Positions 22,088-64,000 of a stretch of DNA of 64,000 bases are shown piece after piece. Under the pieces are notes generated by a model that saw only the letters and a list, made by a program, of their open reading frames with translations, was not told where the DNA came from and made no database searches. Origin of the DNA: a virus (Duplodnaviria; Caudoviricetes); the IMG/VR virus record IMGVR_UViG_3300032266_000694, positions 57-64,056 of that record. The stretch is one strand, 5' to 3'. A program made the translations under genes and the position numbers. Position 1 is the first letter of the stretch. Each line of letters begins with the position of its first letter.

Positions 22088-22726
22088 TTAATCATCTTGG
22101 CTTCTCGTTGTTGCCTTTTCCTTAAGCACCTTTCGCCACAGACGCCAAGCTGTTCCTGGTGAAAGTCCAAGTGTTCGGGACAAGTGACGGACGCTGACAA
22201 CCTCACCAGAATCAATCACAAGCCTAGCGAGCTGGAGCTGTTCTTGGGTAACCGATGTAACCCGACCACAATGAACGCCTCGATCCATGGCGGCACGCAT
22301 CCCAGCTTTGGTACGCTCACGAATCAGATCACGCTCAAACTCTGCGACGGCCGCCAGCACATTGAGCTGTAACTTGGAGGCGGGGTTCATAGCTCCTCCT
22401 GTCGTGTCGATACCTTGGGAGGGGACACACAAACCGCAGTCGTAGGACAGGAGGTCGTTAATCAACCCAGCCAAGTGTTGGGTAGACCTACCAAGCCTAT
22501 CAAGTTTCCAAGCCAAGATAACTTGGATCTCCTTGTCCATCGCCGCCCGCATCATCTTGTCCAAGGCTGGGCGTTCTGTAACCGACCCAGATATTCCGTG
22601 ATCCTCGTAAAAAACAGGAGTCCAACCCCGAGCCTTGCAGATCTGGGTAAGGTTATCCTTTTGAAGGTCGGTGTTCTGCTCGTCCGTCGATACTCTTAAA
22701 TAGATACCAGCATTTGATGTAGTCAT
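22088..22726 (-). CDS. Small serine recombinase (resolvase/invertase)
   Basis: IYLRVSTDEQ (catalytic Ser), RPALDKM, WKLDRLGRS, AEFERDLIRERTKAG...GR, C-terminal HTH. Confidence 0.95.
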   Translation of the reverse strand: MTTSNAGIYLRVSTDEQNTDLQKDNLTQICKARGWTPVFYEDHGISGSVTERPALDKMMRAAMDKEIQVILAWKLDRLGRSTQHLAGLINDLLSYDCGLCVPSQGIDTTGGAMNPASKLQLNVLAAVAEFERDLIRERTKAGMRAAMDRGVHCGRVTSVTQEQLQLARLVIDSGEVVSVRHLSRTLGLSPGTAWRLWRKVLKEKATTRSQDD

Positions 22727-31902: not shown

Positions 31903-32508
31903 CTACGGATTGGCCTCGAAGAACGCTTGAGCAAACCCAGCAGGGGTGACTGATCGCAGTTCTTTGGTCTTCTCGCTGTTGCCACCCAGCTTCGCCCACA
32001 TCCACGAACCTTTCTGACCCTTGGAGTTGGTATACATAATGGGACGTACTGGATTGCGTACAGGAGGCATCTTGAACTTGCCCCACAGACCAGTTTTCTT
32101 GGTGTAAGGATCGCCGTACTGCCAAGGCTGGAAGTAGGTCGGGCCGAAGTATTCCATTTCGGGGAAGAGGCTGTTGATGCGACCCACAGGATTCTCGATG
32201 ACCCACCACTTGGGATCTGTCTTCTGGATAATCCACATAGTTTTGTGGAGTAGCTTCAACCCCTCGGAGGTGCGTCCGTCCTTATCCTTGGCGGAGAAGT
32301 GCCTAGCCCCAGAGACGCAGAAGTGAGTGCAGGGAGGGGCGGCCAAGATGCCGTGGATCTTTCCAACCTTATCCAGCCAAGCCTCGGTGATGTCTAAAAC
32401 ATCGTCGCCGTGCTTGATGTCTACTTGGATCGTTTTGTAGCCAGCCTCGTGATAAGGCCGTGACCACGCACCAGAGTAGTCGAATAGTGACAATATCGTC
32501 ACCGCCAA
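31903..32508 (-). CDS. C5-cytosine DNA methyltransferase (short phage type)
   Basis: LSLFDYSG (motif I), LAAPPCTHF (catalytic PC), WVIENPVG, YTKKTGLWG. Confidence 0.88.
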   Translation of the reverse strand: MAVTILSLFDYSGAWSRPYHEAGYKTIQVDIKHGDDVLDITEAWLDKVGKIHGILAAPPCTHFCVSGARHFSAKDKDGRTSEGLKLLHKTMWIIQKTDPKWWVIENPVGRINSLFPEMEYFGPTYFQPWQYGDPYTKKTGLWGKFKMPPVRNPVRPIMYTNSKGQKGSWMWAKLGGNSEKTKELRSVTPAGFAQAFFEANP

Positions 32509-36618: not shown

Positions 36619-36956
36619 TTTTTCGATCTGGAAAGAACTCCTGTCATGGATCCACACCATCGTCTTTGTCTTGTTTGGCGTAGGGCTGGGGGTGTCGGGT
36701 CTCGTTTTCTTGGTGGCTTGCTTTTGCACAGCCATCGACTGGGTGCGGAAGGAGCTAATAGATTGAAAATAAATAAAATGAAGACTGCCTCAATCAAGGA
36801 GGCCATCGACAGGCTTGAGGCAATGCGAAGCGGTAAGTGGACGGCTGAACAGGACAAGAAGACTTGGTCGGAATTCCCGAAAGGTCGGGAGACTGGAAGC
36901 CTCTACTACAAACATCTGAGAAACGAAATACAGGCGAGAGCCTCGGAGGGTGCAAT

Positions 36957-38042
36957 ATGACATTTGATGACGGACGGATGGGGCTTCCTAGTGCATCGAA
37001 GGCCGAGCGGTGGACAAACTGCGTCGGGTCGGTGCAGTTGGAAGAACTGATCCCAGACGCAGAGCAGGGACCAGAGGCAAGAAGAGGGGATCGGATTCAC
37101 CTCGCCTTGGCTGACGGAAAGGTCAATGACCTACCCAATGCCGACGAGGTGGAGTGTGCCGAGCTTTTGCAAGAGATGGAAAAGCAAGCCGTTGAGGCCT
37201 TCCGTCTTGAGGTCAAAGCCGTTGACGAAACCTTTAAGGGCAAGCTGACGGCCAGCAGGGAACAGCGACTTGTTTTGAAGCGTGGGGAAACCCCGCTGAT
37301 GACAGGGAAGCCCGACCTTGTTTTGTGGACGGATACCATCGTCAAGCGTGGGCTGATCGTAGACTACAAGACAGGGATGGGGATCGTTCCAACCGAGAAA
37401 AGCCACCAGCTTCGGGTGTTGGCATTCTTGGCGGCGGACGAATACGGACTCGAGGAGGTCTATGTGACTATCCTCCAGCCGAACAACCCAATCGTCTTGC
37501 AGAAGATGACTCGGTCAGAGATCCGACTTGAGCGGGAACGCACCTTGTTGGCCTTGGACAGGATCGCAGATAAGTCTGCCTTCCGCCAAGTTGGTCCTTG
37601 GTGTCAGTACTGCAAAGCCACAGGGATATGCCCAGAGGCACAGGAAGCCACCAAGACCCTCACGACCACAAGCTCGACAGCGGTTATCGACCCCAGCCAG
37701 CTACCAAGGCTTCTGGAGGTCTGCACCCTTGCCGAGAGCGTAATTGAGAATGTTCGCAAGCGGGCAAGGGAGATCCTCGACGCTGGAGGCGAGATTTCTG
37801 GTTGGAAGTTAATCAACAGCAAGCGGAGATCCATCACCAGCTCTGCCTCTGCCTATCACCTCATCAAAGAGGCGTTTGGCGAAGAAGTAGCGATGGGGGC
37901 TTCCTCTGTTTCGTTGACTGATGCGACAAGGAGCTTGGCGTCTAAGGCGGGCCTCAAGGAGAAGGAGGCCAAGGCAAAAATCGAGTCGGTGCTTGCCGAC
38001 ATCATTGAAATGAAAAATTCACAACGACTGATGAGGTCGTAA
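36957..38042 (+). CDS. PD-(D/E)XK exonuclease (DUF2800/Cas4-like)
   Basis: SASKAERWTNC.GS, G.RIH, TGKPDLV, IVDYKTG, HQL..LA, WCQYCKA...CP. Confidence 0.88.
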   Translation: MTFDDGRMGLPSASKAERWTNCVGSVQLEELIPDAEQGPEARRGDRIHLALADGKVNDLPNADEVECAELLQEMEKQAVEAFRLEVKAVDETFKGKLTASREQRLVLKRGETPLMTGKPDLVLWTDTIVKRGLIVDYKTGMGIVPTEKSHQLRVLAFLAADEYGLEEVYVTILQPNNPIVLQKMTRSEIRLERERTLLALDRIADKSAFRQVGPWCQYCKATGICPEAQEATKTLTTTSSTAVIDPSQLPRLLEVCTLAESVIENVRKRAREILDAGGEISGWKLINSKRRSITSSASAYHLIKEAFGEEVAMGASSVSLTDATRSLASKAGLKEKEAKAKIESVLADIIEMKNSQRLMRS

Positions 38043-41255: not shown

Positions 41256-42985
41256 ACCACTCCAAGCCTTAGACTTTATCCGAGACAACGCCTTGCCGTT
41301 GGCACAGGCCAAGGCCAACCGCATCTATCTGGAGGAATTCAGAAAGACCAAGAAGGCCATCTTGATGCGGGACGCCAGCGACGAGGGGATGGTCACAATC
41401 GCCGCCCAGGAGCGAGAGGCCTATTCCCACGAGGAGTACCAGAAGCTGTTGCTTGGATTGAAGGAAGCCGTCCAAGAAGAGGAGCGTCTTCGTTGGCTGA
41501 TGATTGCCGCTCAAGCCAAGATCGAGGTCTGGCGGTCGTTTGAGTCATCCAAGCGGGCGGAGATGCGACTATGAGCGTGAAGAGATTTTCTAGGCTATTG
41601 GACAGCCTTGACCATGGGAACAGGCTTTTGCGTGCAATATCCAAGACAGCTCCTACGCCTATGGTTTACTCGATCCAGCAATGCCTAACCCATTACGAAG
41701 CCGTAACCCTAATGGCAAAAGAGTCGCTTGAGCTTGCCAAGAGGCACAAGGCCAAGGCTCTGGAGGAACGGATGTGATCGTTGTCCGTTTAGAGAAGTAC
41801 GAGGCCGAGGTGGCTGTCCTTGTGGGGTCGGCTAGGAACAAGTCTGCTCTAAACAAAGAATCTCGAGATGTATACCCAGTTAACCCTGTTATGTCTTGGG
41901 GTCAGCACGTCGAGGCCGCAGGGGCTGAGATGGCGGTGGCAAAGTATCTCGGGCTATACTGGGACGGATCTGTGGACACATACCGATCGGGTAGCGGGGA
42001 TCTACCTTACACCCAGATTGACGTTAAGCACTCACAGGACGGCAAGTGGAAAGTCAAGGATCGTGATGAAGGAGAGCTGATTCTTGTTAAGGGAGTCATG
42101 CCCGAATACACGATTGAGGCCTACTGCATCACGGATGAGGTAAAGAGGGCTTCTGACCCCTGCAAGATGGGCGAATCTAAGCTCTGGTTTATTTCGGACA
42201 GGGTAAAGAGAAAGGATCTTGAAGGCCTAAAGAAGACTCTTTGGAGGAGGGCATTTGACGCACGGCAAGCGTCTCCGCCCTGTGAGGTCAAATGAGGGCT
42301 TTAGCTTGGACTCTCTATTGGATTGGGGACTTCATATCCAACACCATCCTGCGGTTTGGTTGGGGCTACAGGATTTACAACAAGGTTATGACTTGGTCTT
42401 TGAGGTTCGATAAGAACGACGAGATCTGGAAGAGGGTCAAATGACCAGCTATCTGCCAAGCCCTCGCTGGGTTCAGACTCCGCTCGGACAGGCTCTATGG
42501 ATTGCCACCATCGACTACGGCATCTCCCATAACCCTATTTACTTGGTCGAGATCTGCTCAACAGGGGAACACCGATGCGTGGACATGAGGGAGATTCGTG
42601 GGATGGAGAATTACACTTTTGATATCAATAGGCCAGAGATGGCCAGAAAGAGAGACGAGTGGCTATGAAAGACATGACAGAAGACACGAAACACGTTCCA
42701 TCCATTGCCGAGATGGCTAGTGCGGCCGCCGAGATAACTTGGAGAATTATGAGTAACGGGTCGGCTAAGTCGGCTTATGGCGAATGGCTACATAAGGATA
42801 AGCCCACCTACGATTACCATATTTGCAGGGCAATCAAACACGCTGTAACTGCCCAGCAACAGATCCACCTCAACGAACCCCAGCCCGACAATAATGGCGA
42901 GACAGCCATTGACCACCTTGAGAGAACTATCGTTCGTGGTCTCTTTGCTTGGTTTCAGCTCAAGAGGAAAATGCCTAGACTATGA
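41248..42985 (+). CDS. Nin-like run of small genes (41248-41574 coiled-coil, 41571-41777, 41774-42295 PD-(D/E)XK-like, 42441-42668, 42665-42985)
   Basis: Mostly coupled ORFs. 41774-42295 has AE.AVAKYL...D....IDVK. Confidence 0.6.
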
Positions 42986-44040
42986 AGGTTTATATCTGGG
43001 GCTATCTGCATCAATGCGGTGGGGCGGGACCCGAAACAGGACACGCAATCGAGCTATTCCGAGACAACGGAGTCGAGGTCACTTGTGTTGTTCCACAGGG
43101 AACAGATGTCCTTTCAACCCACGAGCCTAGAAGGCGGTACTTGGATTCTCTAGGGGTAGCCACGGAAGCATATAGTCCTGGTATGTTCAACGACCAGAAT
43201 GTCTGGTGCTGGTGTGAGGACAGCATTTTTGAGTATCTGGCTAGGCACGAAGAGACTCCTCGGCAAGTTGTGTACTGGCCCTGTATGAATGTTCTTCGGG
43301 ACAAGGAGCTAGTAGGCATAGCCAAGACAAAGAATCTAAAGATACTTTGCCAGTCGAACTACCAGCTTGGGGAGCTTGCTAAACGCCTAAACGAAGTAGG
43401 GCTTTCTGCGGATCTCCAGCACGTTTTCCCCTTCTTCAACATTGATAGTAGATGGGGAAGGTTAAGGTTTTCCAATAAGTCCCTAGATACTCTCAATGTA
43501 TTAAGAATTGGCAGGGACGATGAACCCTTCAAATACCCAAGGGATATGTGGGATCTGTTCTACAAGGTGACAGCTCCTGTCGGGGTCACAACAAGACTGA
43601 ATGTCATTGGATGGGGCAGGGAGGGGGAGGCTCTCTTGGGTGATGTGGGCAAAGAAGGGCATCCCTATCACGGCAGAATCAACGCCGAGCTTATCCCCCA
43701 TATCTACAGCCCAGCGACTTTGGCTAACTACTTCCGAGACGCCCACGCTTTATTGATGTGGTATCCAGTACATGAAAATGCCCCCAGAGTCCTTTTTGAG
43801 GCAATTACCAGCGGAGCTGTTGTGGTAGGAGCATCCCACGGAGGCATCCCAGAGTTCGTTAGAGACCAAGAGACTGGCTTTCTGGTCTCAAGCAATGATG
43901 AGGCCTCTCACAGGCTTTCACAGCTTGCCTTTAATCCAAACAAAACAACCCGAATGGCTGAAAATGCCTACGACAATCTCAAGAAGGGGATTGGATGCCC
44001 GAAGTGTGCCTTTGCTAGGTTTAGTGCGGAGTTCCGATGA
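42982..44040 (+). CDS. Glycosyltransferase, GT4/GT-B fold
   Basis: N-terminal GGAG.E; C-terminal ENAPRVLFEAITSGAVVVGASHGGIPEFV.DQETGFLV. Confidence 0.88.
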   Translation: MKVYIWGYLHQCGGAGPETGHAIELFRDNGVEVTCVVPQGTDVLSTHEPRRRYLDSLGVATEAYSPGMFNDQNVWCWCEDSIFEYLARHEETPRQVVYWPCMNVLRDKELVGIAKTKNLKILCQSNYQLGELAKRLNEVGLSADLQHVFPFFNIDSRWGRLRFSNKSLDTLNVLRIGRDDEPFKYPRDMWDLFYKVTAPVGVTTRLNVIGWGREGEALLGDVGKEGHPYHGRINAELIPHIYSPATLANYFRDAHALLMWYPVHENAPRVLFEAITSGAVVVGASHGGIPEFVRDQETGFLVSSNDEASHRLSQLAFNPNKTTRMAENAYDNLKKGIGCPKCAFARFSAEFR

Positions 44041-45223: not shown

Positions 45224-45751
45224 TCATTTCAGCCAATCTCGGCACAGGAGCGTCCGCATCGACCTTTTCCTTCGGTATACGCCGTCACCCCCGCCAGCTC
45301 CCCGATCCCCAGCCGAGTTGGTATTACCCTCGATTGTGGTCGCAAACCCATTCTCCGTTCGCTCAATCAGTCCTGTATGGGCTACACGCCCAAGGGAACT
45401 AAAGTAGATCCCGAAGACGGAAGCAGGGGGTGAATAGGAGACTCTCTTGCCACCAACTACCCACGACGGACTCCATCCTGTTTGTGGTACAAGATTGCCA
45501 TACCCAGCTTCACGAAAGACATAGTAGTTAAAAGCGGCACACCAAGGATTTCCTGGTTCAAGTCCAACCGATGAGAGGATAATGTCTACCTCTGGGCCTG
45601 TATTCACTCCCCATTCCCTTACTCCAATCATCTTTCTGGCTTGCACAAGGACGCATCCTCGGTCATCAGCAAAAGACAGGAATGGGATTAGGATTAACGC
45701 CAGCCAAGAAGGCATACCACGGCTCCTATGAAAAGGACGCACCATAGGCAA
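45224..45751 (-). CDS. CHAP/NlpC-type endolysin
   Basis: IGVRE...PWCAAF...VAHTGLI...TIEGNT; hydrophobic N-terminus; start uncertain. Confidence 0.88.
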   Translation of the reverse strand: MPMVRPFHRSRGMPSWLALILIPFLSFADDRGCVLVQARKMIGVREWGVNTGPEVDIILSSVGLEPGNPWCAAFNYYVFREAGYGNLVPQTGWSPSWVVGGKRVSYSPPASVFGIYFSSLGRVAHTGLIERTENGFATTIEGNTNSAGDRGAGGGDGVYRRKRSMRTLLCRDWLK

Positions 45752-46044
45752 AGCACAATGACGAGGCGAGTTGTTCTGCTGGTGGCTCTCCAGTCCTGTA
45801 GCCAGCTCAAGGTATCAATATACTCATTGATTGAGGGCCACTCCATTTGCACTACAAACCACGCCAGCCATACCGCTAATAGGTAGGCAGAAGCCCCAAG
45901 GATTAAACCATGCAGGGATCCTCGGTCATACGTCCCAGCCGATGGATCAAACTGCTGGATCAGCGGGGCGGCCGACCAAAACACAATTATGGCTATACAA
46001 AACGACCCAAGACCTTGGAACTTGGAAAGGAACTTCTTCACCAA
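45694..46044 (-). CDS. Holin-like multi-TM membrane protein
   Basis: Three hydrophobic segments; directly upstream of the endolysin. Confidence 0.6.
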   Translation of the reverse strand: MVKKFLSKFQGLGSFCIAIIVFWSAAPLIQQFDPSAGTYDRGSLHGLILGASAYLLAVWLAWFVVQMEWPSINEYIDTLSWLQDWRATSRTTRLVIVLCLWCVLFIGAVVCLLGWR

Positions 46045-46434
46045 GGGATCCCTACGAACTTTCTAGCCACAAACATAATACCACCAAATATGACCCCTCT
46101 AAACATCCATAGCCCTAAAGCGATAAGCGCACCTCGATAGATCCAAAGCTCCTTCAAGGCCTTCCGCTGTTTATCCTTCCAGACCCCAGCATTCTTAATG
46201 GCCTCGTTCTTCTCTTTGACGGCCTCGTCCAGATCCACGGAGGTCTGCTTACAGGCCTGTACGGCACTCTCTAGCTGTGCCTTGGCTACAACTAGGTGCT
46301 TCTTGGCCTCTGGGTTGGCGACAGCGATTGCCTCGTCGATACGAGCTTCCGCTACAGAAAAGTCAGCCGACTGCCGAGGTGTTGAACACCCGCAAAGCAA
46401 TACAACTAAAAAGATTAAGTACATGTGCATGGTG
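46038..46434 (-). CDS. Lipoprotein with coiled coil and C-terminal TM (unimolecular spanin-like)
   Basis: Lipobox LLCGC, helical middle, hydrophobic C-terminus; lies in the lysis module. Confidence 0.55.
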
Positions 46435-47038
46435 TTACAGGAAGATTTGCGAGATTGAGCTGTCCTTGGCCACCCCAAGTTCCCTCTTCCTCATCAAAAG
46501 TCCTAGAAGCTCGGTCATTCCCCTCTGCGTGTCTCTCAAGTTGCCTAGATTGACCTTTCTTTGTGTCGGATTGCCATTGCCCGCTCTGTTGCTGTTTCTT
46601 GTCGCTATCTTGAGAAGATTCAACGGAACCCGCCTTGCCGTTCCGCTTGTCTCCCTCTTGGGTATTTTGGGATTCTTGACTGATTTCTTTAGTGAGTTCC
46701 GCTTGACCTTCTCTTGATGTTTCGTTGTTTTGAGACAAGTTTCCGCTGGATGTGCGAGAGATTGCCCTAGCAGATTCGATAGATGCGTTTAGGCTCTTCT
46801 GGGACTCCGAAGTAACCTCGGAAGAATTATCTGAATCGCTTGAGACAACGTTTCTTGTGAGGCCTTGGTGAGCCGATGTGACCATAATCTCGAAATCTAT
46901 TTTTTCTGGCAGATCGACCATCACTCCATTTAAGGGGTTTGCCTGTGTTGCATTTCGCGAGTTGGCAATCCCTCTTCTTACTTCAAACAGGGAATCACGG
47001 ATAAATGTATCGAGATCGGAAAGATCAACGATTGTCAT
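46415..47038 (-). CDS. Trypco2-like N-half protein with long polar Pro-free tail
   Basis: DLDTFIRDSLFEVRRGI...DLPEKIDFEIMVT; paralog of 47730-48320. Confidence 0.6.
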   Translation of the reverse strand: MTIVDLSDLDTFIRDSLFEVRRGIANSRNATQANPLNGVMVDLPEKIDFEIMVTSAHQGLTRNVVSSDSDNSSEVTSESQKSLNASIESARAISRTSSGNLSQNNETSREGQAELTKEISQESQNTQEGDKRNGKAGSVESSQDSDKKQQQSGQWQSDTKKGQSRQLERHAEGNDRASRTFDEEEGTWGGQGQLNLANLPVTPCTCT

Positions 47039-47286
47039 CTGTTCCTCCAGTTTATCGCCGCCTCAACAGCAAATCCAACTAGCGACCCAACTGCAGATGC
47101 GGCTAAAATAAAGAACTTCTTGAAGCCCTCAAGTGCGTTGACCCTGTTGGCAAGATCCCCGAAGCTCGAAAAACTCTTCTCCATGACATCCTTAATCTCT
47201 GTTACATCCTTGGACATGGAGATCATGCGTTCTTCCATTCTTGCCATACGCTCCGACATAAACTCACGATGTTCGGATCGGCTCAT
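47035..47286 (-). CDS. Coiled-coil plus TM small protein (holin/haemolysin XhlA-like)
   Basis: ERMARMEERM...RVNALEGFK followed by one TM helix. Confidence 0.6.
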   Translation of the reverse strand: MSRSEHREFMSERMARMEERMISMSKDVTEIKDVMEKSFSSFGDLANRVNALEGFKKFFILAASAVGSLVGFAVEAAINWRNR

Positions 47287-47720
47287 GAGACATCTCCTGG
47301 GTATTGGACAACAATCGGCACGCTGAACCGAATGACACAACCGATATCGTCCTTCTGAGTTTCAATTCTGCTAGAGATTCCAGAGCGACTCGTGCTGGAG
47401 GACTGGGATGAGCTGGTGGACGAAGATCCACTAGAGGACTGACTCGAGCTTGAGCTTCCAGAAGTCGAGGAGCTTGAGGAACTACTTCGGCTTGTCGAAG
47501 AACTTGAGCTATTCGAGCTAGATCGGCTACTGCTACTGCTGGAGGAGGAGGAACGACTACTGCTTGAGCTGTTCGAGGAGGATCGACTAGAGCTATTACT
47601 ACTGGACGAACTAGAAGATCCGCTTGACGAATTGCTTGAAGACGAAGAATTCGACGAGGATACGCTCGCAGAATTGTTGGCAACGGATGTATTCTGTGTG
47701 TCTACTAATGAGTATCCCAT
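47283..47720 (-). CDS. Poly-serine protein with Trypco2-like C-terminal strand
   Basis: SD TAAGGAGG; 94-residue Ser tract with mixed codons; ends VIRFSVPIVVQYP. Confidence 0.75.
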   Translation of the reverse strand: MGYSLVDTQNTSVANNSASVSSSNSSSSSNSSSGSSSSSSSNSSSRSSSNSSSSSRSSSSSSSSSRSSSNSSSSSTSRSSSSSSSTSGSSSSSQSSSGSSSTSSSQSSSTSRSGISSRIETQKDDIGCVIRFSVPIVVQYPGDVS

Positions 47721-47729
47721 AAAGCCTCC

Positions 47730-48320
47730 TTAAATAGAAATCCCCTCAATCTTGCCTGTGTCCGAATCGAATTTGTCGTATAGTCTCTGGGCGTCGTGTC
47801 TCTGGAATGTGCATCTGTTTTCAACCTCTCCGTCGTTACTTGCTCCATTGCCTTGGCTTCCTTCTGTTGAGCCAGACTGAGATTTTCCATTTTCTTTTTC
47901 GTTGCTGGTTTCGTCTTCTAAACCTTGAGCAGACTCTCGAGAACTTTGAGATCCGCCTTCATTGCCTACACCTATGCGGGATGTCTGTTCGGAGTCTTGA
48001 CCACGAGTCTGCTCTTGGGAATTTGTCGACTCCAGATCACCAGAGACCTTGCTTGAAACAGACGATTCATTGGACGTGGTGACCCTTGACTCTCTTCCAC
48101 CTTCGGTGGCTGTTGCCTCAACAAGCCTTTGATAAGAAGATGACTGGTGGGTTTTGAGAAGAGTCATCTCAAAATCAATCTTTTCTGGGAGATCCACCAT
48201 TACCCCTGTGTTTGGATTGGCCTGTGAAGCATTTCGAGACAACGCAATCCCTCTCCGCACTTTGAAGAGGATATTCTCGATGACGCTGGCAGAAGAGGCG
48301 AGTGGTACGACAAGGGCCAT
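47730..48320 (-). CDS. Trypco2-like N-half protein with long polar Pro-free tail
   Basis: IENILFKVRRGIALSRNASQANP.TGVMVDLPEKIDFEMTL; paralog of 46415-47038. Confidence 0.6.
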   Translation of the reverse strand: MALVVPLASSASVIENILFKVRRGIALSRNASQANPNTGVMVDLPEKIDFEMTLLKTHQSSSYQRLVEATATEGGRESRVTTSNESSVSSKVSGDLESTNSQEQTRGQDSEQTSRIGVGNEGGSQSSRESAQGLEDETSNEKENGKSQSGSTEGSQGNGASNDGEVENRCTFQRHDAQRLYDKFDSDTGKIEGISI

Positions 48321-48321
48321 A

Positions 48322-49865
48322 CTAGAACCCCACAGGAGTCATCATTATGTTCATCGCACCGCTGATAGGCTCGTGGTACGACTTCAAGAAGGCCAAGGAC
48401 TCCGACGCCTTCTTTACGATAAGGTTTTTGTCTAGGTCTGGTTTGAGCAGGGAAGTTGTCGCCAGCTCCCCAACGATAAGGGGAACTAAGAAGGCCTCAA
48501 TATCAGAGCTGGGGGTGTAGATCCCAATAGGAATCTGTAGATCCGAGAGAACCAACTGCTGTGGCTCTAGCGAAGCCGAGAAGCGGATTGAGGAAGCCTT
48601 TGTAGGCAAGGGGATGACCCGAACTAAAGCCCTAGCCCCACCGCCAATAGTGTCTCCGAGGTATTCTGCCGTGTAGTAAGCGGGAAGCCCGCTCTGCCTA
48701 TAATAAGTAAGGGTGTCTTGGCGTACTGGAGCTTCTGAAAGAAAGGTTAGGCGATGGTCTTCGTCCCAGATTACAGACCCTTCGATGCGACGGATTGGTG
48801 CCCACAATGGGATCGCATCGTCATAAAGCAGACCAGTATATGTCCCAGTTGCTAAAGACCACGGATCACGAAGGGTAGATCCAATGCCAAGAGGACACTT
48901 GCGATCACCGACTTCAAGAGTATCCCCGATCCGTTCGGTATCAGAGGACAGGGTGAGGCCTGTCACATTCCTAGATCCTTGGGTCAGTCCAACCGACACG
49001 CTTACAGGGGCAAGCTGGAACGAGGTGACAGGAGTTGTCTTACGCCCAGAAGGGGCTGAAAAGTAGTATTTCGCAAACCCAGCATTGATCGCACCAATTA
49101 GTGTAGAGGCTTGGTCTACTGGGATTGAAATTGGATCGTTCGGTAGGTTAGTGAACGAGATTACCCTTTGGGCGAGCTGTAATGATGTCATTTGGCCTCC
49201 TCCAGGGTTTTCAACGCCCTGTCATACTCGGCCTTTAACAAAGGCTCTCTCTGTTTGCTTTTATCGGCAAAAAACAACGAACTGCTGGATAGGTAGCGGG
49301 CGATGGGCAACAGCAGGGTCTCTGCGTAGTTGTGAGGCATCGGGATAATTGTGGAGGCCGAATAATCGCTAGTTGTAAAAGCAGGGGCTTTAATCGAAAC
49401 CTCGACGGAAAGAGCTGTGCTTGTGGTGGGAGAAGGCACAACAAACATCGTGATCTTGGTGGAATCGGCGGCGTCTGGGGAAGGCCGTTTCTCGTCTGCA
49501 AAGTAGGCTTGGGGTGGCGCACCAGTAAGGGCAGTCAGACTGCCAGCATAGATTGAGGCAAATGAATCGTACTCGCCTCGTGTGCGGATGGGACGAAGGC
49601 CTACGCCGTCAGAAACACGCTTTACAGGGCCGAGAACCGCTTCAACCGATTCATCGAGCGTGACGTTATTTGAGTTGGCTGAAATCGTCGCAGTAATCGT
49701 CTGGCGTGTGTAGTAATCCAAGAGCCGATGCCCCTTGGCCCAAATGAGTTGTAACGCCGAATTAAGGTCGTTGAATATCCGCCTCCGCATAATTTCGGGG
49801 GCAGATGCGTTATTAGGGATGCCGAATACTTCATAAATTGCATCTATGGCTTGGGTGACGTTCAT
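48322..49865 (-). CDS. Two paralogous head-tail adaptor/tail tubular-like proteins (48322-49191, 49188-49865)
   Basis: Both have the G.P..Y...I.V.P.P...IP....E..LVP pattern typical of podoviral adaptors and lie downstream of the capsid gene. Confidence 0.65.
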
Positions 49866-50203: not shown

Positions 50204-51799
50204 TTAGATATTGTCCACGGGCAACACCAACCCTGCGTAACGAACAGCGTGGTTCAGTACGAGGTAGTTGGGTTGTTCGCCGTCAACACGGACATAAGGG
50301 CTTTGCCCAAAGATGCTCGTGATGTAGGTCTTGCGAATGAACTCGCCATCGAACGTCTCTTCGGAACGCTCGCCGTCCAAGGATCCGTAACCGCGAACTG
50401 CGGCCATAGCTCCCAGAACCATCGTGCGACCAATCGGTACGCCCGCCGCATTACACTCGATAACCAAATCGCCAACTGCGTGTGAGTTGGTGATCTTGGT
50501 GTTATCAAATGCGTTGGTGTTGAGGGTGACACCTTCGGTTGCATTCCATCCAGTCGTGGCCGTGGTGGCTTTGACTGCAAGGGTGTTACTTGCGCCAGGA
50601 GTGGCGTCGGAAGGAATCAATGCCTTGGTGATGTTCAGCGTGTTTCCGTCGTTCCCAGCGACTGCTCCTACGGTTGTATATTTGTACAAGCCGTACTTTC
50701 CGCTTGAGAGGATCAGAACGTATCCACCAGTAAACGAAGTCCCGCTGGCCGTGCCAGTAGGATTCGAGAAGTCAATCGACCCCTCTACGCCACTTGTGAA
50801 TACCTGATTCCCACCAGTCGGGTAGGTGTACCCGCTGAAGAACTTGAAGTACTTCGGAGCGGTTTTCGCGGCGGCGGTAGCAGATCCACCACCCTTGAGG
50901 GTGAGGGAGGTCTTGCTGGCGGCCAAGATATCAGAAGCAGAGACGATTGCGACGCCCAAGCTGGCTTTGGCGTTGATCGGAGATCCGATCGCACCGAAAC
51001 CATCGTGGTCGGCAGGGTCAAACTGACGGATGACGTGACCATCGAGGTCAACGTATCCACCAGTGAACTGCTTCGCACCTTCACCTTCAGCGGCGGCGGC
51101 GGCGTTCAAGGCGGCCAGATATTTCGATTCGCTCTTGAGGGAAAGCAAGCCTTCGCCTGTGGAAACGATAACGAACTTCTGGATCTTGTTCTTGCCAACT
51201 TGGCCGATGGTCGCAGGGCGAGCCCCACGAGTGCGGAGTTGCTGACCAGCGGCGATCAAGCCGTCATAGGAGAGGGTATCGGTATGCGTCAGCGCATTGA
51301 TCGAGGCCTTTCCGTTAGCCTGGTAGTAGTTTTTCGCAGTACCTTTGTGGAGGAACAGCTTCTGGAGGCGTTCGGTTTTCATCCGTCCGAGCCAGTTGCC
51401 GAGCATCACAGGCACATTGCTCTTCAATTCGCTGGCGAGAGCAGTTTTCTCCTCGAGCCGACGATTGTAAGAGACAGCGTGACGCAAGAAATCCACAGTC
51501 AGATTATAAGATCCGACTCGGAAGTCTTCCGTGTTGTCTTGGATGAGTGTTTCACCCTGCACGCCTTCGCCGTAGAGTTGAGCCATCGTGCGGAACGTGA
51601 TTTTCGTCCCTGCACCTTTGCTCAAGTCCCGAACGGACATGACTGGGTAGCTTTCTGTGGGTCCCTCGAACTGCTGAAAGAAATTCTCAGCGGCCTCCGA
51701 GAGTTGAACCCCTTTCTTCCAAAGTTCGGGAAGAAAATTGGAAGCTTGCGACGACACATCGGTCGTCGCGTTGTTTGTAGGAATTAAAAGGTTAGCCAT
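50204..51799 (-). CDS. Major capsid protein (N4-gp56/DUF4043-like)
   Basis: DLSKGAG.KITF...L.GEGVQGE...L.VD..RHAV; strong SD AGGAGG; follows the scaffold gene; carries a Thr/Gly-rich inserted domain. Confidence 0.88.
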   Translation of the reverse strand: MANLLIPTNNATTDVSSQASNFLPELWKKGVQLSEAAENFFQQFEGPTESYPVMSVRDLSKGAGTKITFRTMAQLYGEGVQGETLIQDNTEDFRVGSYNLTVDFLRHAVSYNRRLEEKTALASELKSNVPVMLGNWLGRMKTERLQKLFLHKGTAKNYYQANGKASINALTHTDTLSYDGLIAAGQQLRTRGARPATIGQVGKNKIQKFVIVSTGEGLLSLKSESKYLAALNAAAAAEGEGAKQFTGGYVDLDGHVIRQFDPADHDGFGAIGSPINAKASLGVAIVSASDILAASKTSLTLKGGGSATAAAKTAPKYFKFFSGYTYPTGGNQVFTSGVEGSIDFSNPTGTASGTSFTGGYVLILSSGKYGLYKYTTVGAVAGNDGNTLNITKALIPSDATPGASNTLAVKATTATTGWNATEGVTLNTNAFDNTKITNSHAVGDLVIECNAAGVPIGRTMVLGAMAAVRGYGSLDGERSEETFDGEFIRKTYITSIFGQSPYVRVDGEQPNYLVLNHAVRYAGLVLPVDNI

Positions 51800-60437: not shown

Positions 60438-63400
60438 CTACTTTGTCTGCTTTGCGTCGCCCATTGCATATCTCTGACGGACAATCTGTTCCTCGTATTT
60501 GTTGCGGAGCTTAGAGGCTAGATCTTGAATTCTTTGCTTCTTTTTGTCGGTTGGGTTGGCGATATCGGCTTCGGTAATGTTCACCTCGAACAAGGCCTGT
60601 AGCTGGGGCTGGACAATGGAGTTGAGTGTCTCTTGTTCCCGCAGAGTCAACCGAACCTTCTTTTTGCTGTAGGGATCTGTGATCTCGGCTCTGGGTGAGT
60701 TAAGAACCCAAGTCTTTCCATCTGTTGAGATCTGTTGCCTGTTGTAGGACTCCACGAACCGATTGAGCTTGGAGGCGGGCTTCTTTTTGTAGACGGCGAC
60801 AGGGGAGAGATTCCTAAGTGCAAACTTGGCAAACTTCCCAGCTTTGGTGTCTGGCACGACCTCCGTGAACGGCTTGACTACTTTTTTGCCTTCGTAGTCG
60901 TAAGCGTATGGAGTCCTGTATCCAGTAGCTGAAGGGTATGCTCCTATTGCAGGGGCAAACTTTGACAGCATCCTGTCTTTGTTTAACAGGCTTGGCTCTT
61001 CGGATGCAGTTCTGGATACATAATCTTTTGAGGCTTCCACAAGACCCCTAGCGATTGGAGGGGCTGTAAATACCGATGCAAAATCTATAACAGGGTCAAC
61101 CACGTTCCAGTCGACGAACAATCTCTTTGCTGTACGAAGCTGTCCTCCGAATGTTTTCTGGGTAAGGATTCTGCTGAAATCTCCAACAAGGTTTTGAGAG
61201 ACAGCGATTCCACCACCACGATGAACTGCGTCTTTTACTGCTGTTGCCAATGCAACACCAAATCCCATAGCGGTCACAAACGGCTCAATCCTGCTGATAT
61301 CGAACTCATTGTCGCCAATTCGGATCATATAGGATCTGTTCCCATACCTAGTCGTTCTGCCAGCGGAATCGGCTTGGGCGGCGGGGCCAGTAATCAACAG
61401 GAGCTTCTTATCGTCATCCTTGTCGCCTTCCATACTTCTGAACAGAGCCATCAGAATTGCTGTCCCAATCGCTCCCTCAGTAAGCCCTGCTACGGCGTTT
61501 TCGTAGTTGGTCAGATCCATAAACCTCTGGCCTTCTTTATTAGTTTTGACTGAATTCATCGCTCCGATTGCTGAATCGGCCAGTCCTACAGGGGTGAAGG
61601 CCATCCCTCTTGCCAGCACGTTGTACGAGATCCGAGCGAACAAGGTAAGGCCTCGAAGGATCTGTAATCCCATCGACCCACCGAAGGCCACAGGGGCCGT
61701 GACAGCTCTTGCTCCACCCTTGCTCGGGTCAAAGCCCCAGTTTTCGAGGCTCTGGGAGGCGTCGGATATGCCTTTGCTAACTTTATTCAAAGCCCGAGGG
61801 ATCGCCTTGCCAGCCCTCTTGAATGTAAACGGCTCGTCTTCGTTTGAGGCTACATCCTCGTTAAGGGTCTCACGAGAAGACCGCTCAACTGCAATTTTCC
61901 AAGAGTCAGACCCATACTCGCTGATCTGGTTCCGCACATAATCGACCATTTCTTGGCCTTTGAGGCCTTTTGCCTTGGCCATTCTGAATGCGATAGATCC
62001 TACAAGGGTTTCTGCCGTGAATGATTTAGCAAACTCGTCGGCCGCCAAAAGAGCCCGCAGGGGCAAGCGGATCTTCTTTCCAAAAGAGCCAGGGATCTTG
62101 GGATCGTTCTCGTAAAACTTCTGATCGCCTTCGTCCAGCAGGGTCGCATCGGTATGGTCGATGTTGTAGTAGGGCTTTTCGGTGTTGAATGCCAAGCGGG
62201 CGTACCGCAGTCCGTTAATTACGGAAGGCCACATCGCCATGAAAGCCTCTTTTGCTTCCTCGCTGGCTCCGTTCACAACATCCGAGACGCTGGCGTATGG
62301 GTTCCCGATTGTTCCGTCTGGAAGCCTCACATTGAGGCCAGCCTTGCCCATGAGGTAAGACATCCCAGCCTCCACCATCCGATAGAATGGGTTAAAGGCC
62401 ACGAAAGGGGTCTTCGATACGTTGGCAAGCTGGGTCGATGTGCTGGATACAAGCAGGGCAACGTGAGCTTCAAATACTGCATCACCGACGCTGGCTTTCT
62501 TTCCTTGCGCCCTGCGAACCATCTGCATGGCCACCCCGACGTTGCTTGGCTTCCTCCAGTCGAATAAGGAGCTTTTGCCGTCAACATTGTGCCAATCGGA
62601 CTTGCCAGATGTGTCCGACTGCCCTGCGTAATCAAATCCCATGGCTGACACAATCTCTGCGAGAATCTCTTCTTTGGTGAGGGGAGCCTCTTCTTGGTTG
62701 GCTTCGATACCCCTAGACCGCAGGGATGCTCCGTTGGCAAATGCGGTCAACTTTGCCCTCAACTGGCTTCTTGTGATCCCTTGGGTTGCAAGCTCTCCAG
62801 CTACTTGGTCAAACCTCTGCTTTGTGTTCGTCTCAAGAGATTTCATCAACTGCATCACTCTGGCTGGCTTGATCCCAGCCTGTTTAGCGGCCGCCATCGG
62901 AACCATTCCAGCCATCACAAGTCGGATTGCCTCGGCGTCATCTTTAGACATCTTGATTGTGTCCAGCACGTCTTGAGCTGATTTGCTCTCACGGATCTTG
63001 AGCTGGGCAGTATCCCAATCCATCTGCTCGAGGCTGGTATTTGCCTTTGCCAGCTCTGCCTGTAGAGCCTCTCTTTCTCTCGATGCTTTTTCTAGGGCAA
63101 CTTGGTTCTGGTCGTTAATTTCAGCCCATTGCCTGTTGTATTCCTCAACTTCTTTAATGCGAGCCTCCATGTAAGCTCCCCATCTCTGCCATTCCTCGTT
63201 TGCGTCAAAAGCCTCACCAGCCTGTCTCTTTGCTGTCTCCAGCTCCTCTTTTAATACCCGAATTAGCTCATTGTTGTTTTCAATAGCATTTTGCTTCTTA
63301 ACGGAGGAGACTGCATTGTTGTAAAGATCCAGCTCGCTTCTTGAGGGTCTCATAAGCTCATCCATGACAAATTGCTTATTTCTTTCCTCTCTGGTTAAAG

Positions 63401-64000
63401 GATCCAGCTTGCCCATGACTCCAAGGGCTCTTCCTAGGTTACTTCTTCCGTATCTCCTTTTTTGATCCAATAAGACATTTATTGGCGTAGCCCCGCTTTT
63501 GTTTGAGTCTTCTGCTGTGGCAATGCTTAACGCAACCTCAATTACATCGCTTGTTCGATCGAGGGTTCCGTCTAGCAATCCCTTGTAAAGTTTGTCCTTA
63601 TTTTCAGCAACCAGCTTTCTGGCGGCATTGACTACGTCTTGTTTTCTGTGGATCTCTGGGTTTTCAAGTTTATTGAGTTCAGCAGCGAGCCTTTCAACGA
63701 ATCTGTAATTATCATTTGCGTCTGGGCCAGCACTCATTACGTCTTGCCCAGCAAAAGGCGCCCCAATCTTGTACGGCATCGTCTCTGCGGATGCTCGATT
63801 GGCTAGATCGTTAATCTCCTCGTCGGTAATGACGCTTCCAGATGCTCCCAAAAAGGAGGCAAGCAAGTCGTTTAGCGGAGCTTGTTGTGCTCCATTATTG
63901 ATTGGTTCTTCCTCTGGCATCGGGGGAAGTCCTCGTGCCCGCAGGGAATTCACGGAACGAAGTTGTACGTTGGGTCCCCAATTTCGTTTTGCTCTCTCTA
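60438..64000 (-). CDS. C-terminal >=1186 aa of a giant internal virion protein (5' end beyond window; probably the same gene as 1-13964)
   Basis: Frame is open past GTG 63953 to the edge. It shares SLR[AS]RG motifs and the 49-bp repeat with the left ORF. RALLAADEF.K and IRIGD...DISRIEPF are typical of podoviral ejection-protein C-termini. Confidence 0.85.
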   Translation of the reverse strand, partial: ERAKRNWGPNVQLRSVNSLRARGLPPMPEEEPINNGAQQAPLNDLLASFLGASGSVITDEEINDLANRASAETMPYKIGAPFAGQDVMSAGPDANDNYRFVERLAAELNKLENPEIHRKQDVVNAARKLVAENKDKLYKGLLDGTLDRTSDVIEVALSIATAEDSNKSGATPINVLLDQKRRYGRSNLGRALGVMGKLDPLTREERNKQFVMDELMRPSRSELDLYNNAVSSVKKQNAIENNNELIRVLKEELETAKRQAGEAFDANEEWQRWGAYMEARIKEVEEYNRQWAEINDQNQVALEKASREREALQAELAKANTSLEQMDWDTAQLKIRESKSAQDVLDTIKMSKDDAEAIRLVMAGMVPMAAAKQAGIKPARVMQLMKSLETNTKQRFDQVAGELATQGITRSQLRAKLTAFANGASLRSRGIEANQEEAPLTKEEILAEIVSAMGFDYAGQSDTSGKSDWHNVDGKSSLFDWRKPSNVGVAMQMVRRAQGKKASVGDAVFEAHVALLVSSTSTQLANVSKTPFVAFNPFYRMVEAGMSYLMGKAGLNVRLPDGTIGNPYASVSDVVNGASEEAKEAFMAMWPSVINGLRYARLAFNTEKPYYNIDHTDATLLDEGDQKFYENDPKIPGSFGKKIRLPLRALLAADEFAKSFTAETLVGSIAFRMAKAKGLKGQEMVDYVRNQISEYGSDSWKIAVERSSRETLNEDVASNEDEPFTFKRAGKAIPRALNKVSKGISDASQSLENWGFDPSKGGARAVTAPVAFGGSMGLQILRGLTLFARISYNVLARGMAFTPVGLADSAIGAMNSVKTNKEGQRFMDLTNYENAVAGLTEGAIGTAILMALFRSMEGDKDDDKKLLLITGPAAQADSAGRTTRYGNRSYMIRIGDNEFDISRIEPFVTAMGFGVALATAVKDAVHRGGGIAVSQNLVGDFSRILTQKTFGGQLRTAKRLFVDWNVVDPVIDFASVFTAPPIARGLVEASKDYVSRTASEEPSLLNKDRMLSKFAPAIGAYPSATGYRTPYAYDYEGKKVVKPFTEVVPDTKAGKFAKFALRNLSPVAVYKKKPASKLNRFVESYNRQQISTDGKTWVLNSPRAEITDPYSKKKVRLTLREQETLNSIVQPQLQALFEVNITEADIANPTDKKKQRIQDLASKLRNKYEEQIVRQRYAMGDAKQTK

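Follow-up and report, generated by a model that had tools for sequence, protein, structure and literature searches.

Coupled lengths and alternating polar arrays in three neighbouring proteins of an uncultured phage suggest a heteromeric β-structure

The stretch of DNA analysed here (the window, 64,000 nucleotides) comprises positions 57 to 64,056 of the IMG/VR record IMGVR_UViG_3300032266_000694 (Duplodnaviria; Caudoviricetes), which has 64,056 bases; the window is thus nearly the whole virus record. Its minus strand carries a tight late operon, in which the capsid gene is followed by the adaptor genes, by four small genes named A, S, T, and B, and by the lysis genes; neighbours within the operon are separated by 1-10 nucleotides or overlap by 4 nucleotides. 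According to the open reading frames (ORFs) on this strand, A consists of 196 residues (47730-48320), S of 145 residues (47283-47720), and B, a paralog of A, of 207 residues (46415-47038). T (47035-47286) consists of 83 residues if counted from the conserved ATG; the ORF as listed starts at a TTG at position 47340. The subject of this report is the trio A, S, and B, whose lengths and residue patterns are coupled to each other in all lineages of related phages that we compared.

A and B start with the same N-domain. Of their N-terminal 56 residues, 34 are identical (61%; BLASTP expectation value (E) 4e-22), and this paralogy is detectable at the DNA level, too (105 nucleotides, 73% identical). 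In A, the N-domain (residues 1-60) consists of a helix (residues 7-31) and the strand GVMVDLPEKIDFEMTLL; it is followed by a polar array (approximately residues 61-168) and by the conserved C-end RCTYQxHxANRxYDKFDTDTGxIxGIS. In B, the array spans approximately residues 60-165 and the C-end reads SRQxExHxEANDRASKTFDEEEGTWGGQGQ...PCxC. Alignments show that the C-ends of both proteins are alike as well (RCTYQxHxANRxYDKFDTDTG versus xQxExHxEANDRASKTFDEEEG). Proline is absent from residue 46 to the end of A and from residues 45-199 of B, and hydrophobic residues are rare in the arrays (11 of 106 in A, 12 of 117 in B). S consists of serine to 57% and ends with ...GCVIRFSVPIVVQYPGDVS; its array (residues 19-113) is enclosed by the conserved N-end MGYxLVDTxNxSxANNSASV and the conserved C-end ETQKDDxGCVIRFSVPIVVQYPGDV. 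Among the conserved residues at the ends are cysteines and histidines, namely C170 and H175 of A, C128 of S, and H170, C204, and C206 of B. An N-terminal hydrophobic segment is absent from A, S, and B, and their sequences contain neither signal nor membrane segments. No family for the three proteins was found in Pfam, PHROGs, or NCBIfam, in the case of Pfam and NCBIfam not even at E <= 10, and a search of the ESM Atlas with the N-domain gave no usable match.

A word-index search yielded 71 relatives of A, many of which consist of exactly 196 residues down to 50% identity. A profile of the N-domain matched 52 representatives at E <= 0.001 among 1.84 billion proteins. Two of these 52 (P0109 and P0113) are unrelated repeat proteins, and several are short relatives of 98-160 residues, which combine the same N-domain with a shorter Thr/Ser-rich tail. 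No relative of the N-domain was found in 185,579 prokaryote genomes, and tblastn searches of 50,697 deposited phage records with A and with the capsid protein gave no match. The phage lineage is uncultured and is without a cultured or deposited relative in the collections searched. For a comparison of loci (designated by L numbers below), we gathered related viral and metagenome contigs, which stem from freshwater samples; these gave 25 distinct sets with complete A and S genes, 18 of which also contain B. The trio occurs in the same order in every related contig reaching that far, its conservation and synteny are far beyond chance, and in 25 of 25 sets the elements of A, S, and B reside on separate genes. 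These findings agree with a first-pass annotation of the window, which had described two paralogs with a common N-terminal motif and a long, polar, proline-free tail as well as a serine-tract gene between them ending in VIRFSVPIV, had located all three between head-tail adaptors (an SU10_adaptor gene lies upstream) and lysis genes (a CHAP endolysin gene lies downstream), and had named synteny as a check. It had left out T, the homology of the C-ends of A and B, the conserved N-end of S, and the conservation and synteny of the trio.

T is composed of a coiled coil and a C-terminal membrane helix, has weak matches to XhlA (E 0.089) and to PHROG 35984, and is present in all lineages. The homologs of T in the window (47035-47286, minus strand), in L054 (3887-4141), and in L040 (8501-8767) occupy three different places relative to the trio: in the window's and a second lineage, T is flanked by S and B; a third lineage has it ahead of the adaptor-like gene; and in L040 it is the first gene of the lysis cassette. 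Due to this shift in position, a role of T as a fourth subunit of an assembly is unlikely, and T probably stands outside of it.

Across the sets, A varies between 165 and 271, S between 96 and 225, and B between 160 and 286 residues, and these lengths vary jointly: the Pearson correlation is 0.95 for A and S (n = 24), 0.98 for A and B, and 0.98 for S and B (both n = 17). Genes cut by the end of a contig were left out (A of L012 and L018); L020-L022 are without A, and no B was captured for L003, L039, and L013, the B of L013 (about 267 residues) being read by eye. The start of B in L052 is uncertain, the length being 263 residues as listed and 246 residues from an ATG at 5001. In the window's lineage (12 sets), the difference A minus S is 51 in eight sets (with the lengths 196/145, 214/163, 238/187, and 270/219) and 46-49 in the other four. 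It is 47 in all five sets of the second lineage (A 207-267 residues), 69-72 in all four sets of the third lineage (A 165-246 residues), and 41 in both sets of a lineage which possesses only two of the genes, A' and S' (184/143 and 230/189). The difference B minus A is 10-15 in the window's and in the second lineage. Since A minus S is fixed within each lineage, a gain or loss of up to 75 residues in one gene recurs, in many cases with residue accuracy, in its one or two partner genes. The adaptor-like gene upstream of A codes for 283-289 residues throughout, with one ORF listed at 321 residues.

A further property of the arrays is an alternation of residues. In the array of the window's S, all 48 odd positions are occupied by serine and all 20 non-serine residues are found at even positions (P 5.7e-8); the alternate serine columns are invariant in an alignment of 13 S proteins. 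All six serine codons are used in S, five of them at odd positions. A repeat scan of 46415-48320 detected only the N-domain paralogy and one 21-nucleotide two-copy match within B, no inverted repeats, and as tandem arrays only weak ones within S (30 nucleotides, 2.1 copies); we therefore rejected the idea that the array of one gene is a DNA copy of another, be it in a shifted frame or from the opposite strand. Because serine codons are mixed and because the arrays, apart from the weak 30-nucleotide one, show no DNA repeat either internally or with each other, we conclude that the alternation in S is kept by selection at the protein level. In the array of A, the conserved residues alternate as well (e. 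g. R.T.S.E.S.T.K.S.D), and charged residues occupy 22 of 54 odd but only 7 of 55 even positions. Where repeats exist, their periods are even and common to all chains of a genome: 10 in L013 and L009, 6 in L010 and L014, and 4 in L040. As homologous sets with different periods or, like the window, without any repeats have the same layout, the conserved feature is the period of two rather than a solenoid-like period. One face of an array is always made up of small residues (Ser, Thr, Gly, Ala, Asn), the other one is polar or charged.

The relative orientation of the chains can be deduced from insertions. Among 12 pairs of genomes compared, three pairs of close relatives with different lengths gave clean insertions or deletions. 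From L019 to L014, the arrays of A and B grow by about 24 residues close to their C-ends, and that of S grows by 24 close to its N-end. From L019 to L010, the gains are, in order, 34 and 18 residues in A, 36 and 20 residues in B, and 20 and 36 residues in S. From L040 to L042, A' gains 47 residues at a C-proximal and S' 43 residues at an N-proximal site. Since the matched insertions fall in reverse order in S, this protein is expected to run antiparallel to A and B. In agreement with this orientation, the perfect repeat arrays of L040, L042, and L013 sit towards the C-end in A and B but towards the N-end in S. In addition, opposite charges were scanned for the best register: for B against antiparallel S, the best offset was -3 to -6 in 14 of 14 genomes, whereas for parallel S the best offsets were scattered between -27 and +30. 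The charge register is weak support for an antiparallel S, because the genomes are related and conserved pairs close to the base contribute. Based on the order of insertions, the positions of the repeat arrays, and the charge scan, S would have its C-terminal strand beside the N-domains of A and B and its own N-end beside their C-ends.

The two-gene lineage offers evidence of direct pairing. In L040 (4989-5986), A' contains the array (TSTG)n and S' the array (NENR)n; in the sister phage L042 (4989-6262), A' contains (NENR)n and S' contains (TSTG)n, and each array is longer by 46 residues. The pair thus retains an array of either kind regardless of the gene in which it resides, as expected if both arrays pair with each other. 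The fixed difference A minus S, the reversed order of matched insertions, the common even period, and the complementary swap of arrays together argue for lateral pairing at the level of single residues.

We therefore consider, with moderate confidence, that A, S, and B form a register-locked heteromeric β-structure in the tail or the ejection apparatus of the virion; that the three chains co-assemble at all is very probable. In the proposed model, each chain would contribute one very long, almost purely polar β-strand (about 95-109 residues in the window phage). The strands of A and B would run in one direction and that of S antiparallel to them, such that A (or B) and S make up a giant β-hairpin which is split at its tip; in the simpler relatives, one A-like and one S-like protein would suffice. 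At the base, the N-domains of A and B, with their amphipathic helix and hydrophobic strand, would meet the C-terminal strand of S (CVIRFSVPIVVQY); at the tip, the conserved C-ends of A and B would meet the N-end of S. It is probable that several of these units join into a β-barrel or needle that is narrow and soluble in water; with one small and one polar face, the arrays would suit dense packing in such a narrow structure better than a wide, open tube. The length of the arrays would set the length of the rod: assuming 3.3-3.4 Å per residue of a fully extended strand, it would measure about 31-37 nm in the window phage and about 15-58 nm across its relatives. A more far-reaching version of this model is tentative at best. 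It envisages a fully polar, hetero-oligomeric barrel or needle of tens of nanometres made of split hairpins, whose length is tuned by coordinated expansion and contraction of the arrays, possibly to match the thickness of the host envelope, which serves as a needle or as a self-assembling DNA conduit, and which may be anciently related to the Pepco pore-formers discussed below.

The assignment to the virion is suggested by the genes nearby, all of which lie on the minus strand. The capsid protein (50204-51799; Pfam Phage_capsid_3, E 1.3e-11) is separated by the gene of a 96-residue protein from an SU10-type head-to-tail adaptor of 225 residues (49188-49865; Pfam PF24175, SU10_adaptor, E 1.1e-6, 29.6 bits versus a cut-off of 27). 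Next comes a protein of 289 residues (48322-49191), which is without a sequence family; its AlphaFold2 model has a mean predicted local distance difference test (pLDDT) value of 83.2 and displays an adaptor-like fold with an inserted β domain. Foldseek matched this model to podophage tail or neck entries, namely GP4 (8jov_G, E 2e-5), DEV (9bgm_B), N4 (9lc0_H), cyanophage A4, and SU10 (7z47_A), with template modelling scores of about 0.4-0.5. Since the model matches podophage adaptor and neck proteins and the gene lies beside the PF24175 gene, the phage has two adaptor-like genes in tandem. In all lineages examined, A is immediately preceded by the adaptor-like gene. The two-gene relatives have the gene order capsid, small protein, adaptor (PF24175, E 4.4e-5, below the cut-off), adaptor-like protein, A', S', a tail protein (L040 and L042; PHROG tail, E 3.1e-14), T, lipoprotein, holin-like protein, and CHAP endolysin. 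In phages T7 and P22, needle and ejection proteins occupy the position just after the adaptors. In phage SU10, this position is occupied by genes for long tail fibres, according to PMC9509320. Based on this gene context and on the lack of signal and membrane segments, we assign the trio to the module for tail, neck, or ejection proteins, and its members are probably parts of the virion and not lysis genes. A function as a lysis pore is less plausible, because the gene of the tail protein separates the A'/S' pair from the lysis cassette in the two-gene relatives; on the same grounds, and in the absence of an N-terminal hydrophobic segment, spanins or other lysis proteins were rejected as candidates. 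A needle of the P22 gp26 or SU10 gp18 type was rejected as well: there is no match in Pfam or PHROG, the AlphaFold2 model of A contains a single helix (residues 7-31), and the arrays are devoid of heptad hydrophobic residues.

The lysis cassette of the window lies downstream of B (45224-46478) and consists of three genes on the minus strand. The first one codes for a lipoprotein (46038-46478 as listed), whose sequence shows a lipobox (...LLCGCS) and a membrane helix at the C-end; together with its helical middle, these features give it the layout of a unimolecular spanin, and there is a weak match to Rz-like spanins (E 0.043). It is followed by a holin-like protein of 116 residues (45694-46044) and by the CHAP endolysin (45224-45751; PHROG endolysin, E 2.7e-13; Pfam CHAP, E 5.9e-4, below the Pfam cut-off), which has a signal-like N-end. 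This layout of spanin-like lipoprotein, holin-like protein, and CHAP endolysin points to a Gram-negative host. One homolog of A is labelled by one database source as belonging to a metagenome-assembled genome of Micrococcales, which fits poorly with lysis genes of a spanin-like kind and may reflect an error in binning.

At some distance from the operon, an open frame of at least 4654 residues (3-13964, minus strand) runs off the low end of the window. It contains a ddrB-like ParB domain (residues 1733-1846, E 1e-15), a Helicase_C_4 domain of the Strawberry-notch type (E 2.2e-24), and a weak match to AAA_34 (24.5 bits, below the cut-off of 27); it is similar to the giant proteins with an anti-restriction function that are known from plasmids and phages. 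A frame of 1171 residues at the high end of the window (60438-63953, minus strand) might supply the beginning of this frame, provided that the record is circularly permuted. Among 22088-22726 (minus strand), 31903-32508 (minus strand), and 36864-38042 (plus strand) are found a serine resolvase (E 9.9e-41), a fragment of a C5 cytosine methylase, and a DUF2800/PD-(D/E)XK nuclease.

Several points weigh against a register-locked β-structure. The AlphaFold2 model of monomeric A is of low confidence (pLDDT 46.9) and shows only helix 7-31; there are no strands in the array, where pLDDT is 36-45. Arrays without hydrophobic residues look like disordered regions, and serine is a poor β-former. The placement of gaps in low-complexity sequences is partly arbitrary, and several other pairs of genomes (L054 to L051, L036 to L059) gave scattered, unreadable gaps. 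Virion membership of A, S, and B is deduced solely from the order of genes. Homology to Trypco2, the one known family with a unit of helix plus hairpin, is undetectable. An unsplit, single-chain form was found neither among the 52 N-domain representatives nor by searching longer proteins for the C-end of S, the latter being weak evidence. Finally, three types of chain would close naturally into an all-antiparallel sheet only with two S per A and B, whereas the two-gene systems fit a ratio of 1:1.

Alternatively, the arrays might be disordered and possibly O-glycosylated spacers of the mucin or serine-rich-repeat kind, joined only at their conserved ends; their lengths would then match as those of ropes do that are tied to each other at either end. 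Their composition and the low pLDDT values of the A array are in line with disorder, both ends are conserved in all three chains, and the alternating serines resemble the dipeptide repeats of serine-rich repeat glycoproteins. Moreover, the gene of a group-1 glycosyltransferase (42982-44040, plus strand; Pfam, E 5.4e-11) lies at a distance of about 2.4 kb from the Ser/Thr-rich genes, and its product could be a candidate modifier of the arrays. Flexible tethers, however, would tolerate slack, whereas A minus S is exact in 8 of 12, 5 of 5, and 2 of 2 sets of three lineages; nor would tethers account for matched insertions at matching positions in reverse order, for the same even period in all chains of a genome, or for arrays that swap as a complementary pair. 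Taken together, we consider such spacers an unlikely explanation.

The existence of three chains also brings to mind a parallel heterotrimeric fibre, i. e. a triple β-helix or β-spiral with one copy each of A, S, and B, acting as a needle or fibre of the tail. Fibres and needles of phages are trimeric, and the needle gene of P22 is located after the adaptor genes, too; in a parallel arrangement, four conserved cysteines (C170 of A, C128 of S, C204 and C206 of B) would come to lie near one end and might constitute a metal site. The position of the SU10 long-tail-fibre genes after the adaptors (PMC9509320) fits as well. This arrangement is at variance with the reversed order of insertions in S and with the location of the repeat arrays, which lie near the C-end of A and B yet near the N-end of S (L040, L042, L013), and the charge register is consistent only with an antiparallel S. 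In addition, the repeat period varies between homologous sets (4, 6, 10, or none), unlike in solenoid fibres with their fixed period, two-gene relatives exist, and a hydrophobic core is absent. A heterotrimer of this kind is consequently quite improbable.

The first-pass annotation had likened the trio to a split Trypco2 domain. Trypco1 and Trypco2, effectors of bacterial defence systems which form pores upon activation by a protease, were named in PMC7159879; bioRxiv 10.1101/2025.11.14.688446 describes the same proteins as Pepco, with 117 residues, SDS (sodium dodecyl sulphate)-resistant β-barrels of 9-10 subunits, and amphipathic helices at the base, and reports that Pepco turns into a pore after C-terminal cleavage. 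According to these two papers, the Trypco/Pepco genes are neighboured by a trypsin-like or caspase-like protease and by a STAND, vWA-MoxR, or other sensor. By means of hmmscan, no Trypco match was found at E <= 1 or 10 in A, S, B, the isolated N-domains, the C-end of S, or 15 distant relatives, and a six-frame search of the whole 64-kb genome with PF19631 (Trypco2; gathering score 24.2 bits) gave 0 matches at E <= 10. As a control, PF19631 matched 9 of 401 Acidobacteriota genomes above the cut-off. The 11 Trypco2 domains from these nine genomes and seven more homologs served as a reference of 18 sequences, which gives shallow alignments only. When the N-domain profile (67 sequences) was compared by hhalign with the 11 domains, the probability was 9.8% (P 0.0033) over 34 columns in the expected register; with the 18 sequences it was 2.2% over 10 columns. 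For the C-end of S, hhalign gave E 0.68, and the closing strand was not aligned. The order of elements is alike by eye: a helix, then 'lvFEVPEVEVELkv' versus 'vmVDLPEKIDFEMTL', and finally a closing 'hRLKLrP' versus 'VIRFSVPI'. The resemblance to Trypco2 is therefore one of pattern and topology, and homology could not be shown. Of the earlier idea of a split domain, co-assembly is supported, very probably with the N-halves of A and B and the C-strand of S at the same end (as length co-variation, reversed insertions, and the array swap suggest); the identity as a Trypco2 domain is not supported.

That the trio is a true, highly diverged and split Pepco/Trypco2 pore-former acting in lysis, or a decoy for a host defence by protease and Pepco, is highly improbable: the shared order of elements (amphipathic helix, 'hxhPExhEhxh' strand, polar hairpin, closing 'hRhxhxP' strand), the local hhalign match in the expected register, and the adjacency of the window genes to the lysis cassette are opposed by the low hhalign probabilities, by the missed closing strand, by the lack of any Pfam match, by arrays which are polar on both faces and thus differ from the hydrophobic exterior of the Pepco barrel (bioRxiv 10.1101/2025.11.14.688446), by the absence of a protease neighbour of the trypsin or caspase kind in Pfam scans of 36 window ORFs, and by the tail gene preceding the lysis genes in L040 and L042.

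As an analogy, the Pepco barrel is nevertheless the closest known working model for the register-locked β-structure proposed here; an assignment to the family is not implied. Pepco combines a helix, an amphipathic strand with alternating acidic residues, a Gly/Ser hairpin, and a closing strand near a proline in the same order as A plus S, and its oligomeric barrel of hairpins with helices at the base (described in the bioRxiv preprint) corresponds to what is proposed for A, S, and B. Unlike Pepco, which is one chain of about 100-125 residues, the elements are split over two or three genes here, and the arm of a hairpin comprises about 50-175 residues compared to about 10-15. As the arrays contain so few hydrophobic residues (A and B), a membrane-facing exterior is argued against; in contrast to the Pepco barrel with its hydrophobic exterior (same preprint), the A/S/B structure would be soluble and not insert into membranes. 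Neither a protease nor a STAND or vWA-MoxR gene was found beside A, S, and B in the 36 ORFs scanned, and the trio belongs to a phage, whereas Pepco is found in cells; the scan of 185,579 prokaryote genomes with the N-domain gave no relative.

A similar alternation of small and variable residues with a period of two over about 100 residues is known from silk-like and serine-rich-repeat proteins. These are single chains which are secreted or anchored to the wall, whereas a signal peptide is absent here and two or three chains are coupled in length. With the needle and ejection proteins of podophages (P22 gp26, T7 gp14-16), A, S, and B share the position after the adaptors in the late operon and sizes of about 150-290 residues, and their job might be a similar one, i. 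e. an elongated structure that plugs or extends a short tail. The same likeness holds for SU10 gp18 and gp20-24, whose gene position is given by PMC9509320. Needles known so far are coiled coils of three chains, and helices prevail in the known ejection proteins; length-coupled polar arrays occur in none of them, and there is no sequence match to A, S, or B. A search of the literature on heterotrimeric phage fibres and on serine-rich or low-complexity virion proteins of podophages found nothing similar, which does not imply absence from print.

If the model is correct, A, S, and B represent an architecture not described in the literature searched: a rod or tube held together as a polar zipper by strands of 50-175 residues from different genes, without a hydrophobic core. 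The number of array residues, co-evolving to the residue across genes, would directly encode the length of this structure and would be a ruler for a phage tail part that can be read from sequence. The system would be a test bed for the in-register pairing of fully polar β-sheets and would suggest a design principle for protein nanorods of programmable length. It would also imply that low-complexity, disordered-looking ORFs of phages can face strict structural constraint. The length coupling and the array swap constitute a rare, clean case of compensatory co-evolution of insertions and deletions between genes.

Among phage structures, the tip needle of the T4 long tail fibre, gp37, is related to the proposed rod by its shape. 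This six-stranded antiparallel β needle is made of three long hairpins; gp37 is a homotrimer, its hairpins are unsplit, and it contains His-x-His iron sites. Like gp37, which is a phage tail appendage as well, the A/S/B rod would be long, thin, and soluble, with strands running up and back along the axis and a core of small or metal-binding residues. In contrast to gp37, HxH motifs are lacking here, the up and down strands would be separate gene products, and the arrays are several times longer and variable in length.

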